DNA of 4,389 bases from a virus. Taxonomy: Duplodnaviria; Heunggongvirae; Uroviricota; Caudoviricetes. The stretch lies in IMG/VR virus record IMGVR_UViG_2657245439_000012. The stretch is one strand, 5' to 3'. Below, piece by piece: positions 43-4,389 of the stretch (its first letter is position 1; each line of letters opens with the position of its first letter). The position numbers and the translations under genes were made by a program. The notes beneath the pieces were generated by a model, which searched no databases, had not been told where the DNA came from, and worked only from the letters and a program-made list of their open reading frames with translations.

Positions 43-308
43 CTTACACAGCCACTGGATCGGTCAACTGATCCTTAACTGATCGGCATTACTCCGGAGA
101 GGGGCATTTTTGCATGCACATTCTTTTTCTTGCATGGTGCCGGGTGCCTCCCGGTGAATTCAGTATCAGCACCTGAATCCGCGATTATCACATATACCTG
201 GTTGCTGATTGCCCCTCCGCACAGGGGGATTCACCATGCAGTAGTATTTTTAATAAACAGCAAATAAAAAAATCAAGCATTATGCAGGCTGTTTCTTTTT
301 ATCACCGG

Positions 309-440
309 CTACAGCAATACCACAATGCCGCAGACCAGCACCCCATCCGCCAGCACCGACATGATTCTGCTGGTGAAATCCACCATCACCACCAGAAACA
401 GCAGGAGTGCAGCCACAGCCAGGCGCAGTTTTACCGTCAC
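309..440 (-). CDS. Small hydrophobic protein, 43 aa (VTVKLRLAVAALLLFLVVMVDFTSRIMSVLADGVLVCGIVVLL), predicted two-helix membrane peptide
   Basis: Own translation of the minus strand. GTG start (438-440) overlaps the TGA stop of the upstream TerB-like frame (GTGA overlap); GGAG sits 8 nt upstream of the GTG; stop TAG at 309-311. Below the length cutoff of the supplied ORF track. Two hydrophobic stretches. Short, so it could be chance. Confidence 0.3.
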   Translation of the reverse strand: MTVKLRLAVAALLLFLVVMVDFTSRIMSVLADGVLVCGIVVLL

Positions 441-897
441 AGGTGATTCTCCAGACGAAGACTCAGAACACCGGCAATCTCTTCCAGCACCTTGCGCTCT
501 TCCGGCTCAATTTCGCCGTCTGCCTCCGCAATGGCCACCGCCACATCCAGCACATCTTCCGCTTCACGCGTATCGTGTTTCACATCCTCGATCTCACGTA
601 ACGCCGCACGACGACCAATTTTAAAGTTCGTATCCAGCTGACCGATAATGGTTGCGCTAATCGCATTAATTTCTGACGTAAACGCGGACAGCGCAGGCTG
701 ATTACGCAGTACCTGTTCGATCTTCGCTTTCTAGGAAGCCTCACATTCACCATCTGCACAGGCCACCAGGTAGGCAGCATTAATAACCGCCTGTGCCAGA
801 TCGCGTTTCTCAAACTTTCCTTTTTCCGGTTAACGTGACACACCAATAACTCTTGTCGAAAAAGCCAGCAAGCTGAAAGACCGGTATTCACAACCAC
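437..897 (-). pseudogene. TerB-family (tellurite-resistance TerB-like) gene remnant, disrupted by an in-frame amber codon and a likely frameshift
   Basis: Minus-strand frame ending at TGA 437-439 translates to ...KFEKRDLAQAVINAAYLVACADGECEAS*KAKIEQVLRNQPALSAFTSEINAISATIIGQLDTNFKIGRRAALREIEDVKHDTREAEDVLDVAVAIAEADGEIEPEERKVLEEIAGVLSLRLENHL. It shows two hydrophobic-x-ADGE acidic repeats as I recall for TerB domains. In-frame TAG at 731-733; frame is closed upstream by TAA at 830-832 and contains no ATG anywhere. The only possible start is GTG 895-897 in another frame (track ORF 580..897), which would require a frameshift near the A5 tract at about 815-825. Confidence 0.5.
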
Positions 898-931
898 CAG
901 CGCGTTTACTGTACTGGCGTGATTTCAGTCA

Positions 932-957
932 TAAAAAAACCCGCCTGGCGACGGGTG
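932..957 (-). terminator. tR'-like intrinsic terminator downstream of the late promoter
   Basis: Minus-strand RNA ACCCG-UCGCCAGG-CGGGU followed by U7 (plus-strand A-run 932-938); located about 40-65 nt downstream of the predicted pR' start, as in lambdoid pR'-tR' units. The stem is only 5 bp. Confidence 0.55.
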
Positions 958-989
958 TAAAAAATCTTCTAACGTCAGGCATAAAACGC

Positions 990-1031
990 CCATCGTTAGG
1001 GCAAATTTACCACAGATTCGGGAAAAATCAA
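990..1031 (-). promoter_or_regulatory. Late promoter pR'-like with Q-utilisation (qut) / sigma-dependent pause element
   Basis: Minus strand reads TTGATT (-35, 1026-1031), 16-bp spacer, TGgTAAATT (extended -10, hexamer 1004-1009), then TGCCCT and AACGATGGG (992-997). I recall the lambda pR' layout as TAAATT-TGACTC-AACGATGGG, where AACGAT is the -10-like pause inducer. Lies immediately downstream of the Q stop codon (1037-1039). Confidence 0.6.
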
Positions 1032-1036
1032 CAAAG

Positions 1037-1858
1037 CTATCTGGTCACCTTTTTCAGTTGTTGTTCTGCCCATGCTTCTTCAATATCAAACTGCACCACC
1101 AGCGTATCGTAAAAACGTTTAACTGTTTTTTTCCATGTATCAAGAGATATGGCATCGGTTACATTACATATGGCATTAAATGCCTCCGTTGAAGGTAATC
1201 TTTCATAGCCACGACCACCACAACGCTGGCAGTCTCTGATAACAGGCATACCACGTTTTACCGACTCTTCACGATGAATGGCAACACCGCGCCCACGACA
1301 ATCTTTACAGGCAGTGGATACCTCTCCCTTCCCTCCACACTCCGGACAGGCAACTTTTACCACCTCCCTGACTTTTTTCCATTCCTCCCAGTAAGACGGA
1401 TACACGCCTTTTGTGCACTTTGCCCACACTGGCGGCTTACCATCCGGATACTGGATCTTGTTTGTAAAAACCTCGCTTTCAATAAATTTTTTTCCGTGAC
1501 AACAGGGGCACTGTTTTTTGCTCGCCGCGCTACGGGCATAATCTTCAAACGCATACGAAGCCATAATACGCATCACTGCCGGTTTTATTTCTGCCGGGAG
1601 TTTTCTTAACGCCGCCACGCGATCACACCGACTGAGTGCATATTCTGTCAGCAATTCTGTTGCCCGCTCTCTGTCATTCATACTAATGCCCATTTTCCCA
1701 AGGAACGCAGAAAACCCCATCTCAGCCCAATTCTGTGTCATGCCCTGCGCGGCCATCACATCAGTGATACTCAGCGTATCTTTCGACGTTGAGGCCGATG
1801 CATCAGTCAGGCCGGGGGATTTTGGGGAGTAGTATTTCGGTAAATCTTCCAGTTTCAT
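1037..1858 (-). CDS. Phage antitermination protein Q (late-gene regulator), 273 aa
   Basis: Track ORF. Cys-rich zinc-binding region (CPCCHGKK, CPECGGKG, CKDCRGRG, CQRCGGRG); N-terminus MKLEDLPKYYSPKSP and C-terminus KVTR resemble Qin/phage-82-type Q as far as I recall; sits directly upstream of a pR'/tR' unit and downstream of rusA, the canonical lambdoid position. ATG overlaps the rusA stop (ATGA). Confidence 0.7.
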   Translation of the reverse strand: MKLEDLPKYYSPKSPGLTDASASTSKDTLSITDVMAAQGMTQNWAEMGFSAFLGKMGISMNDRERATELLTEYALSRCDRVAALRKLPAEIKPAVMRIMASYAFEDYARSAASKKQCPCCHGKKFIESEVFTNKIQYPDGKPPVWAKCTKGVYPSYWEEWKKVREVVKVACPECGGKGEVSTACKDCRGRGVAIHREESVKRGMPVIRDCQRCGGRGYERLPSTEAFNAICNVTDAISLDTWKKTVKRFYDTLVVQFDIEEAWAEQQLKKVTR

Positions 1859-2241: not shown

Positions 2242-3291
2242 TTACCCGAGCACGCCGGTTGCAAAGGCGTGATCAAGAAAACGAAAAATTAAATCAACCT
2301 GGGAACCATGCTTTTCTTCGAACGCCAGCGGATCCGCATGAAGCTCGTTGTGATGCTCCCGACACAGCGGTAGCGTGAAAATATCGTGGGATTTTGTTCC
2401 CATTCCGCCCTGACCATGACCAATCAGATGATGAGGATCGTCCGCTGGCTTACCACAACACGCACACGGCTGTGTCTTTACCCAGCGTGTGTATTTCTCA
2501 TTTACCCAGCGGCGACGTTTAGGTCGTTTCATGAAGGATTCCGGAGACTCCGGATCAACGGCAATGCTGACCACCGTCTTTTCCTGTGGTGGGTTCTGTT
2601 GCTGGTGGGTGTGAGGCGGTAGCGCAATATTTTTTGTGCGCTGCTTCAGTATGCTGGTGGCGGTCTGCTCTCCCGGCACGATGTCGCTTTCACGGTACAT
2701 TGAGCGGATTTTTTCCGCACGCCCCCCCAGCGAACGACGTAATACCGCTTCCGGTAGCGCGTCCGCCACCTGATTGCGGACCGCCCACCAGGATAATTCA
2801 GCCAAAGATAATTCACGCTCCTGCGTACCGCTTATTGCGTGACCGATGACGTCAATCATCCATGCTGACAGGTTTTGATGAGCAAGTTGCTCGAGTGATT
2901 CGGATGTCTGGTCACGCAGCTGGTTGTCGCAGTGCCAGCACAACACCATTGCGCCGGTACCATAACGGTGAATGACAGTTTCGCTGTGATGATAATCGCC
3001 GTGTGGCCACTGGCAGGATTTAATATGGCGCAACAGCCAGTCAGACAATGCACCAGCACCACCAGCAGCACGAATCACCCGTGCGTTACTGAAAAACGGC
3101 AGCAATGTTTTGTCTTCCACCAGCGGCTGGCGAACGGCAGGAACGACCCCGGACGGCAGATTACGCATGCTTTTCGGTTCCGGCTCCATCAATACCCGGG
3201 TATTGTGGAATACTGGCATGGATTCACGGCCCGGCTTAACGATCACAAGCCCGAGTTCCGGTACCAGAACAGGTCGAAGTAATACCCGCAC
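2242..3291 (-). CDS. ydfU: YdfU-like prophage protein (DUF968 family) with C-terminal HNH-like Cys/His motif, 349 aa
   Basis: Track ORF; same length as the Qin prophage YdfU as I recall it, and in the same position between Q and rem/hok. C-terminus PCACCGKPADDPHHLIGHGQGG...LPLCREHHNELH looks like a His-Me finger (CxxC...HH...C..HH..H). The start as drawn is GTG 3289-3291 with GGAGG 4 nt upstream; the first in-frame ATG is at 3217-3219, so the N-terminus is uncertain. Confidence 0.75.
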   Translation of the reverse strand: MRVLLRPVLVPELGLVIVKPGRESMPVFHNTRVLMEPEPKSMRNLPSGVVPAVRQPLVEDKTLLPFFSNARVIRAAGGAGALSDWLLRHIKSCQWPHGDYHHSETVIHRYGTGAMVLCWHCDNQLRDQTSESLEQLAHQNLSAWMIDVIGHAISGTQERELSLAELSWWAVRNQVADALPEAVLRRSLGGRAEKIRSMYRESDIVPGEQTATSILKQRTKNIALPPHTHQQQNPPQEKTVVSIAVDPESPESFMKRPKRRRWVNEKYTRWVKTQPCACCGKPADDPHHLIGHGQGGMGTKSHDIFTLPLCREHHNELHADPLAFEEKHGSQVDLIFRFLDHAFATGVLG

Positions 3292-3292
3292 G

Positions 3293-3571
3293 TTACCTCC
3301 AGATGCGTTGCTGGAATGTGCGAGACGGACGCGGTGGGCGTTCAGAGTAAGGAAGCCTGACGGAGATTATCCAGTGACGGTAGTCGAGACTAAGGGCTTT
3401 CTTAACCTCGTATCCGCGCCTGCGGTAACACTGAATTGTCCATTCAGCCTGCTCTTCAGTACATGGAGGGTGTTGGAACCATTCAGACTTGAATGCGTGA
3501 GAATACCGCTCGTGCGTGCAGGCAAGAACGGGCGAATTATCAGAATTGTAATATTTTACGTTGCGTGCCAT
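3293..3571 (-). CDS. Hypothetical prophage protein, 92 aa, Cys-containing
   Basis: Track ORF. ATG 3569-3571 has GGAG 7 nt upstream; its TAA stop (3293-3295) lies 1 nt from the ydfU-like start inside that gene's SD, typical operon packing. No family recognised from sequence alone. Confidence 0.5.
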   Translation of the reverse strand: MARNVKYYNSDNSPVLACTHERYSHAFKSEWFQHPPCTEEQAEWTIQCYRRRGYEVKKALSLDYRHWIISVRLPYSERPPRPSRTFQQRIWR

Positions 3572-3637
3572 CGGTTTTCTCCGGTGGCACGGTGTTACTC
3601 AGCGGGAGTTCAGCCCCGCGCAAGATTGTAGATGAGT

Positions 3638-3889
3638 TTATTCTTCTGCAAAAGCTGAAAAGCCTGCTTTTATTCCGATCTCTTTCAGTGCCTGTAATGA
3701 AGTAACAAACTCACCTTCGCGCAAGATAAATCCGTCTGTCACTCGACCATCCACAAAATTAATTAACGCAGCCCCATTCTTTCGCAAACACATAATGCGG
3801 TAATGACTAACAAGATTTCCATTTTCAACGCACACAGCATAGAGGCCATCTTCACAAAAAATTTTACGCAGTTCTTCGATGTTCATCAT
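3638..3889 (-). CDS. rem: Small prophage protein, 83 aa; probably the Rem homologue, assigned by synteny and length only
   Basis: Track ORF. Tandem ATG ATG start with AAGGA 5 nt upstream; 83 aa and located immediately downstream of hok, matching the rem-hokD arrangement I recall for Qin. The sequence itself was not recognised. Confidence 0.45.
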   Translation of the reverse strand: MMNIEELRKIFCEDGLYAVCVENGNLVSHYRIMCLRKNGAALINFVDGRVTDGFILREGEFVTSLQALKEIGIKAGFSAFAEE

Positions 3890-4005: not shown

Positions 4006-4036
4006 AAAATAAAAACAAAAACCCGCCGAAGCGGGT
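4006..4036 (-). terminator. Rho-independent terminator of the hok transcript
   Basis: Minus-strand RNA ACCCGC-UUCG-GCGGGU (6-bp GC stem, UUCG tetraloop) followed by UUUUUGUUUUUAUUUU; lies about 70 nt downstream of the hok stop. Confidence 0.75.
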
Positions 4037-4076
4037 TAAGTGCGGGTGCGTTGAGGATGCCTGCCACATCAGAGGT

Positions 4077-4098
4077 GGCGAGGGATTTCTCCCTCGCC
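4077..4098 (-). other. Stable stem-loop in the hok 3' UTR (possible fbi / 3'-processing structure)
   Basis: Perfect 9-bp inverted repeat GGCGAGGGA / TCCCTCGCC with a 4-nt loop, beginning 8 nt after the hok stop codon. Hok mRNAs are known to carry 3' fold-back elements; the functional assignment is inference. Confidence 0.4.
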
Positions 4099-4105
4099 GG
4101 GTCTC

Positions 4106-4261
4106 TTACTCCTCAGGTTCGTAAGCTGTGAAGACAGCGACCTCCGTCTGGCCGGTTCGGATTCGTACCTCGCAGAGGTCTTTCCTCGTTACCAGTGCCG
4201 TCACTATGACGGTTAAACAGATGACGATCAGGGCGATTAACATCGCCTTTTGCTGCTTCAT
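4106..4261 (-). CDS. hokD: Hok-family type I toxin (HokD/RelF-like small membrane toxin), 51 aa
   Basis: Translation from the internal ATG (4259-4261) gives MKQQKAMLIALIVICLTVIVTALVTRKDLCEVRIRTGQTEVAVFTAYEPEE, which matches HokD/RelF as I remember it; SD AAGGAG lies 9 nt upstream; stop TAA 4106-4108. Confidence 0.9.
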   Translation of the reverse strand: MKQQKAMLIALIVICLTVIVTALVTRKDLCEVRIRTGQTEVAVFTAYEPEE

Positions 4262-4318
4262 AGCCTGCTTCTCCTTGCCTTCCGGCACGTAAGAGGCTAA
4301 CCTACATGTGTCTAGCAT
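4106..4318 (-). CDS. mok: Mok-like in-frame leader ORF (modulator of killing), 70 aa, overlapping hok
   Basis: Track ORF begins MLDTCRLASYVPEGKEKQA and continues in frame into Hok; this resembles the MokC N-terminus (MLNTCR...KEKRA) as I recall it. GAGG lies 8 nt upstream of the ATG at 4316-4318. Confidence 0.55.
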   Translation of the reverse strand: MLDTCRLASYVPEGKEKQAMKQQKAMLIALIVICLTVIVTALVTRKDLCEVRIRTGQTEVAVFTAYEPEE

Positions 4319-4389
4319 GAAATTGGCCTCAGATTAATGTTAAGCGTCTTGCAGGACGCGTAATGTTAACTGGGGCTTTTCTCTATCTG
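4275..4389 (+). ncRNA. Candidate Sok-like antisense RNA region (promoter within the mok 5' end, transcript antisense to the mok initiation region); truncated by the window edge
   Basis: Expected from hok/sok architecture. Plus strand has a weak TTGCCT (4275-4280), 17-bp spacer, TAACCT (4298-4303), and a GCGTC-TTGCAG-GACGC hairpin at 4344-4359. No clear terminator is visible before the window ends. Confidence 0.25.

Follow-up and report, generated by a model that had tools for sequence, protein, structure and literature searches.

The 4,389-nucleotide (nt) window analyzed here, a stretch of Caudoviricetes DNA (IMG/VR record IMGVR_UViG_2657245439_000012), is a Qin-like right arm of a lambdoid prophage in which the remnant of a cargo cassette comes after the antiterminator gene Q, and the minus strand of positions 273 to 818 is very probably a nonfunctional remnant of the phage cassette tciA-tciB. 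All genes in the window lie on the minus strand, and coordinates refer to the whole window, with position 1 as its first letter. The original prediction, made from the letters of this DNA, had described a degraded TerB-like gene coupled to a small membrane open reading frame (ORF) as an unusual accessory module. The pair is instead an already named, catalogued, and common cassette, known from phages P1 and JLK-2012, from PHROG families 632 and 1470, and from annotations of the Prokaryotic Genome Annotation Pipeline (PGAP), and the DNA of window positions 309 to 818 matches 1140 of 5426 complete Escherichia coli genomes. The window itself matters little, since the remnant in it is a pseudogene already flagged by PGAP and its neighbors are damaged too; the significance lies with tciAB as a very common cargo under purifying selection, in the slot that holds the Shiga toxin genes of sister phages.

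The first gene of the pair is a 5'-truncated tciA pseudogene (437 to 818, minus strand) that retains codons 18 to 143 and the stop codon (TGA, 437 to 439) and is interrupted by an amber codon (TAG, 731 to 733). The frame closing at this TGA reads ...PEKGKFEKRDLAQAVINAAYLVACADGECEAS*KAKIEQ...LRLENHL*, with stops as asterisks. With the amber read through, its translation gave a significant match to the Pfam TerB family (PF05099), at 41.6 bits against a cutoff of 24.4 (E = 1.7e-10), spanning profile positions 2 to 109 of 118, which bears out the earlier assignment of the frame to this family. The amber (cta on the plus strand) is codon 46 of tciA, where GAG has become TAG; Glu46 is invariant in the TciA alignment and part of the first ADG...E motif. 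The frame had been called inactivated on account of this stop, correctly, but the loss of its start had gone unnoticed. Homology to the intact copy in JLK-2012 begins only at codon 18 (KFEKRDL), the sequence upstream is unrelated, and the remnant has no start codon and is preceded by an in-frame TAA (830 to 832). With no start and an internal stop, it is not a complete translatable gene, and PGAP marks it as a pseudogene, with the remark "internal stop," in a 99.7%-identical locus. A 61-mer carrying the amber had an exact match in 537 records. Three further ORFs that overlap the region, one of 105 amino acids (aa) at 580 to 897 and two on the plus strand at 282 to 446 and 325 to 624, were rejected as other-frame read-throughs with no homology support.

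The second gene is represented by a 43-codon ORF, here called tciB' (309 to 440, minus strand), which begins with a GTG (440 to 438) located 8 nt after a GGAG and ends at an amber codon (TAG, 309 to 311). The GTG overlaps the TGA of the TerB frame (439 to 437) as GTGA, exactly as had been read from the sequence. The ORF matched the Pfam family DUF3927 (PF13064) with 45.6 bits (cutoff, 25; E = 6.8e-12), and the hydropathy of TciB gave hydrophobic segments at approximately residues 5 to 22 and 26 to 47 (full-length numbering), so that the small ORF is real, conserved, and of the two-helix type proposed for it. It is not, however, the intact partner that it had been taken for. Its amber is codon 44, where TGG (Trp) has become TAG and where full-length relatives have Trp or Phe, and translation beyond the amber gives the C terminus of the 55-aa relatives P0128 and P0121. 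The former codons 45 to 55 (PVIKRNSLHNA) and the original stop (TGA, 273 to 275) occupy positions 273 to 308 of the minus strand and are now untranslated. Lost with them are P45 and K48, which are invariant in 16 TciB homologs, and the ORF has neither the length of full-length TciB (50 to 55 aa) nor the (W/F)-P-x-x-K tail that follows helix 2 in it. At least 992 contigs carry the exact 43-aa sequence; what is annotated on about a thousand contigs as a "43-aa DUF3927 family protein" is thus the amber-truncated allele of a 55-aa gene. A census with a 61-mer around the tciB amber was uninformative because a nearby single-nucleotide polymorphism splits the exact class (95 exact and 565 near matches), and a sample from IMG/VR was used for this allele.

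The pair had been placed immediately after the late promoter and terminator (pR'/tR') that follow Q. The location in a late-operon cargo slot stands, whereas the immediate adjacency is an artifact of a deletion of about 2.6 kb. Window positions 816 to 1089 are contiguous with positions 203 to 476 of locus L074 and 197 to 470 of locus L075, at 98.5% identity, and window positions 132 to 818 align to L074 positions 3051 to 3737. The two homologies overlap by 3 nt at the deletion junction (816 to 818), and about 2.57 kb is absent from the window relative to the L074/L075 layout. The missing stretch of L074 (477 to 3050) contains a small ORF, the gene for a 353-aa DNA methylase, a toxin-antitoxin-like pair, and tciA codons 1 to 17; the toxin-antitoxin-like pair, which encodes a protein of 112 aa and a helix-turn-helix protein of 124 aa, lies between tR' and tciA in the place where loci L048 and L228 have a tRNA cluster. 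A 71-mer across the junction was covered to at least 80% in 477 of the 5426 genomes, with half-matches stopping at query positions 35 to 37; the tR' adjacency is thus the product of a deletion common to about 477 complete genomes. A junction variant in the IMG/VR locus L177 reads AGFFDKSYWCVTLTGKGKFEKRDLAQ and is without the in-frame stop that other junction copies have shortly ahead of the tciA remnant; it still has amber 46 and the tciB amber.

On the Q side of the junction, a putative late promoter pR' was read by eye just past the Q stop (1004 to 1031, minus strand). This candidate consists of TTGATT (1031 to 1026), a 16-nt spacer, and TGg plus TAAATT (1009 to 1004); it matches 8 of 12 consensus positions in addition to the extended -10 TG, falls below the threshold of the promoter scan, and was not listed by it. 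These sequence features suggest a promoter role for positions 1004 to 1031, and window positions 934 to 1089, which contain the candidate, are 96% identical to the stretch that follows this Q in locus L020. The terminator scan identified a tR'-like intrinsic terminator (932 to 956, minus strand), which reads ACCCGTCGCCAGGCGGGT followed by TTTTTTT. Its hairpin (956 to 939) has 7 pairs, 5 of them G-C, and precedes the T-run at a distance of 81 nt past the Q stop; a second, weaker hairpin is located at 1003 to 987. Between the terminator and the junction is a noncoding leader (819 to 931, minus strand) that precedes a 65-aa ORF and the DNA methylase gene in undeleted relatives. The sole Rfam match over positions 309 to 957 was a subthreshold suhB-like one (924 to 1009; 20.5 bits, E = 0.63), at the place of the terminator hairpins.

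Downstream of the remnant, the window contains an STnc100-family small RNA (sRNA) gene (86 to 265, minus strand; Rfam RF02076, 116.1 bits, gathering score 47) that begins 8 nt after the original tciB stop. This gene is also damaged: its terminator stem is without the 3' arm, the alignment leaves the last helix unpaired, and uninterrupted relatives (H1) run on into the other hairpin arm. Positions 1 to 91 are the terminal 91 bases of the insertion sequence IS4, whose inverted repeat ends at 91 and which is inserted in the STnc100 terminator; they are identical to the end of the IS4 copy flanked by pdxK and crr in E. coli SMS-3-5, and the two sequences diverge after position 91. The flanks of the two insertions are alike (C.CCG..G.G.G.CATTTTT), and this similarity may reflect a target preference of IS4 for terminator-like sites. 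In phage 933W, a member of the STnc100 family located after stx2B has been reported as the Hfq-binding sRNA EcOnc27 (PMC12711010), and the family has been tied to PasD sRNAs in a 2026 preprint.

Together, these lesions show how the copy in the window was damaged. The deletion of about 2.6 kb took the small ORF, the DNA methylase gene, the tRNA cluster (going by L048 and L228), and the first 17 codons of tciA, so that the remnant has no start codon. The change of GAG to TAG destroyed the invariant Glu46 of tciA, and that of TGG to TAG cut tciB at codon 44, ahead of the invariant P45 and K48. IS4 subsequently inserted in the terminator of the downstream sRNA. TciA is presumably not made from the window, and the late transcript could at most yield a tail-less 43-aa TciB, translated by way of its own GGAG.

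Similar decay is widespread among relatives of the cassette. Coverage of window positions 309 to 818 reached at least 80% in 803 of the 1140 matching E. coli genomes, the number of copies per genome having a median of 4 and a maximum of 10, and the genomic copies of the tciAB region total about 4256. Lesions were classified in 80 IMG/VR loci picked by a 35-mer around tciB codon 44, with either allele allowed and with classes that overlap. Both genes were open in 47 of the 80 loci (37 with the standard ATG-MFG start and 10 with a shifted start read as TTG or GTG), and the deletion junction was present in 15. Ten of these 15 junction loci also had amber 46, including 5 with the tciB amber as well, like the window, and the other 5 had additional frameshifts, which in at least 4 cases also garble tciB. 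Amber 46 with a complete 5' end was found in 7 of the 80 loci, and the tciB amber was found, over all contexts, in 10, once beside an otherwise intact tciA, as in locus L037. The varied combinations of lesions among the sampled loci indicate that the lesions are shuffled by recombination among coresident prophages. Such frequent loss is as expected of an accessory gene that is dispensable or costly in resident prophages.

Several observations weigh against treating the whole of positions 273 to 818 as nonfunctional. The 43-aa peptide keeps both helices and its own Shine-Dalgarno sequence and is widely distributed, so that residual expression or function is possible, and L037 and L112 carry the tciB amber next to an intact tciA, which means that it does not simply follow from the loss of tciA. 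The mechanism proposed below for the cassette is drawn solely from an analogy with TerB and TerC and from the phenotypes of ter operons, and a PADLOC scan with intact TciA, 55-aa TciB, and 43-aa TciB matched no defense-system model, giving only one chance-level match of 14.8 bits. Continued synthesis of the 43-aa TciB from the Q-dependent late transcript, with the peptide acting alone at the inner membrane, for example in membrane perturbation or lysis timing, independently of TciA, would agree with the retained GGAG and helices, with the number of contigs that carry the exact sequence, with its annotation as a protein by PGAP, and with the L037 and L112 alleles. We nevertheless consider it improbable: P45 and K48, both invariant, are lost to the amber together with the basic tail, the allele is a minority one (10 of the 80 sampled loci), the additional frameshifts in a third of the junction-class copies, most of which reach into tciB, are what relaxed selection predicts, and a high contig count is expected from heavily sequenced clones of Shiga toxin-producing E. 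coli.

Production of functional TciA and TciB by read-through of both ambers, through a suppressor tRNA or programmed readthrough, is scarcely credible, even though both premature stops are TAG and related loci carry phage tRNA genes just before tciA. The window contains no tRNA gene, the tRNAs of related loci are of the Met/Ile2-like, Arg, Arg, Lys, Asn, Thr, and Gly types rather than suppressors, and tciA has lost its first 17 codons and any start, with the in-frame TAA at 830 to 832 ahead of it; moreover, GAG and TGG are each one base change from TAG, so that two ambers are unremarkable. It is also unlikely that the remnant persists for a role at the RNA level, as a spacer, 5' region, or 3' untranslated region precursor of the STnc100-family sRNA. 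The sRNA gene does lie on the same strand, with a score of 116 bits, members of its family occupy the corresponding place after stx2B in 933W, and a -10-like hexamer (CATAAT, 284 to 279) was read by eye inside the old 3' end of tciB. However, the promoter scan found no consensus promoter, and the terminator of the window sRNA is split by IS4, so the sRNA gene is damaged too. Such a role would leave the TerB part unexplained, and it is compatible with pseudogene status rather than an alternative to it. The reading of positions 273 to 818 as a nonfunctional tciA-tciB remnant is retained as the best explanation.

The identity of the cassette was established from its intact relatives. In tblastn searches of phage genomes, the TerB protein was 96 to 98% identical in the Escherichia phages Evi, JLK-2012, and PPyecE_EH1910 and 38 to 50% identical in P1, P7, and D6. 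The P1 and JLK-2012 homologs are annotated as tciA, with tciB as the next gene; the names come first from phage P1, and their rationale is taken here from the GenBank notes. In PHROG, the intact relative P0001 matched family 632 ("tellurite resistance") with 233 bits, and a 55-aa relative matched family 1470 ([quoted passage not shown]) with 101 bits, both families being in the moron category. PGAP annotates near-identical E. coli loci as a "tellurite resistance TerB family protein," a "DUF3927 family protein," and an "antitermination protein" in succession. The names tciA and tciB are homology-based assignments. A profile of 15 TciA homologs matched the solved structure 2JXU_A with an E value of 1.8e-11 (query positions 14 to 137 to chain positions 20 to 144), a comparison made on the TciA family and not on the damaged window copy alone.

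By comparison among homologs, intact tciA encodes a soluble TerB-fold protein of about 143 aa with two acidic A-D-G-x5-E motifs, and intact tciB encodes a peptide of 50 to 55 aa whose two transmembrane helices form a hairpin and which is basic at either end. The basic residues suggest that both ends would face the cytoplasm. The original prediction looked to intact homologs in related prophages, and these exist and co-occur. A set of 107 loci was drawn from the window, annotated phages, contigs with diverse homologs, the 80 IMG/VR loci, and genomes from 10 species; tciB directly followed tciA in 104 of the 107, a pairing far beyond chance. Start-stop junctions of the form GTGA, TGATG, or TAATG, overlapping or abutting, were found in the loci checked, which came from E. 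coli, Klebsiella, Franconibacter, Pantoea, and P1 and covered lambdoid, P1, and P2-like contexts; in locus L011, the start of tciB called by the annotation tool is 13 nt past the tciA stop. The ratio of nonsynonymous to synonymous substitution rates between intact copies was 0.004 to 0.11 for tciA and 0.18 to 0.45 for tciB; both are real genes on whose intact copies purifying selection acts. The one functional result encountered for the pair comes from P1, where both genes were nonessential in a CRISPR interference screen (PMC10695390). A profile search of 1.84 billion representative proteins recovered 117 DUF3927 relatives, nearly all of them standalone peptides of 50 to 60 aa; the longer hits P0262, P0302, P0307, and P0014/P0047, considered as TerB-DUF3927 fusions that might be evidence for an interaction, were rejected as frameshift or chimeric products.

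The usual order in lambdoid prophages of E. coli is Q, pR'/tR', a tRNA cluster, tciA, tciB, STnc100, nanS-p (a sialate esterase gene), and the holin, endolysin, and spanin genes. The Q upstream of lambdoid tciAB comes from any of three families, the tRNA cluster before tciA consists of Met/Ile2-like, Arg, and Arg genes, and a small ORF, a DNA methylase gene, and other genes are sometimes located between pR'/tR' and the cluster. As for other lambdoid late-operon morons, the window remnant follows Q on the same strand, and related loci go on to nanS-p, holin, and endolysin. A pattern scan found no consensus sigma-70 promoter upstream of the intact tciA in L020, and the terminators found near the intact tciAB of that locus belong to STnc100. 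In loci L043 and L045 (approximately 500 to 2900), an IS66-family element with ORFs of 141, 116, and 537 aa on the opposite strand is located between the tRNA cluster and an intact tciA.

The position of tciAB is also that of the Shiga toxin genes, in agreement with the cargo slot proposed for the window. In 933W (L227), stx2A-stx2B lies between argO and an STnc100-like sequence followed by an esterase gene. The Stx2a phage Stx2_EH1910 (L228, 6001 to 10079) encodes a Q that is 100% identical to that of the window and continues with a small ORF, a DNA methylase gene, three tRNA genes, stx2AB, and an esterase gene. The stx2AB genes thus share slot and orientation with tciAB, after Q/pR' and tRNAs of the ileZ-argN-argO type and before STnc100, nanS-p, and S-R-Rz, whereas the proteins that they encode are unrelated to TciA and TciB; tciAB and stx2AB are alternative cargos of one late-operon slot. 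We know of no virulence role for tciAB.

The tie to Q that had been assumed for the module does not extend to all of its relatives, since the cassette is also present in the ban region of P1 and, in Klebsiella, among the early genes of a P2/186-like prophage. In the latter (L008, 4001 to 4584), tciA-tciB is located between the Fil/DUF5347 genes and DUF2732, in the order CI-type repressor, CP76, Fil, DUF5347, tciA-tciB, DUF2732, and replication gene gpA. Phages of unrelated architecture thus exchange the cassette. In P1, tciAB is flanked by tRNA genes. The P1 pair resembles the window in gene order, in its overlapping start-stop junction, and in the tRNA genes alongside, with a TciA that is 42% identical to a TciA homolog in the alignment and a TciB that is about 53% identical. 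P1 differs from the lambdoid loci in the presence of a third gene, tciC, after tciB and in the location of the genes in the C1-controlled ban region rather than behind Q, and it differs from the window in that the window copy is a pseudogene. P1 TciC (35 aa) found only P1 itself in a tblastn search of all fetched loci and the window. Genes for tRNA-Asn and tRNA-Thr are located just upstream of tciA in both P1 and JLK-2012 (L002, 4548 to 4781; L003, 2065 to 2218), and the arrangement suggests that the tRNA-plus-tciAB block is exchanged as a unit.

Among characterized proteins, the TerB of terZABCDE (2JXU, from Klebsiella), an operon for resistance to tellurite, phages, and colicins, belongs to the same Pfam family as TciA, and paired ADG...E motifs are present in both. 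The tciA loci are unlike the ter operon in that they have no terC, terD, terE, or terZ neighbors, and the partner of TciA is a 55-aa two-helix peptide, whereas that of TerB is the polytopic TerC. The N-terminal domain of DjlA, a membrane-anchored co-chaperone of the DnaJ-like kind, is also TerB-type and held at the inner membrane, with a weak NCBIfam match of 24 bits (cutoff, 162), but TciA has no J domain, and its membrane anchor is a separate peptide. Phage-inhibition, colicin-resistance, and filamentation phenotypes have been reported for ter operons, and the TerB-TerC complex proposed for them provides the model for a membrane tether (PMC8123226). By this analogy, the TciB hairpin of an intact cassette may tether the soluble, acidic TciA to the inner membrane, and the pair might then serve, during phage development, as a buffer against membrane stress or in the exclusion of colicins or superinfecting phage. 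That three phage types would express the cassette on lytic transcripts points to a role in phage development, such as membrane protection or exclusion. As a tentative proposal, for which we hold a minority probability, intact TciA-TciB could be a minimal membrane-tethered TerB module that protects the inner membrane during lytic development of lambdoid, P1, and P2-like phages, with exclusion of colicins or phage or the timing of lysis as possible functions, and that serves as a nontoxin alternative to stx2AB in the E. coli slot. If this were true, the cassette would be inactivated so often in resident prophages because it is costly to the lysogen.

Upstream of the remnant, the window encodes the 273-aa antiterminator Q (1037 to 1858; Pfam PF03589, 168 bits), RusA (1855 to 2229), and a DUF968/YdfU protein (2242 to 3291), followed by a gene of 92 aa, a Rem-like gene of 83 aa, and, at the far end, hokD with a sok RNA (4106 to 4389; Rfam sok, 71 bits), all on the minus strand. 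A weak isrK-like match to Rfam (4016 to 4097, minus strand; 25.7 bits, below the gathering score of 50) separates the Rem-like gene from hokD and overlaps a GC-rich hairpin that resembles a terminator. A copy of the whole window, with 97% coverage and 96.9% identity, is present in H32 (NZ_CP090612.1, a 420-kb record from a pig), where it is split by an IS481-family transposase gene.

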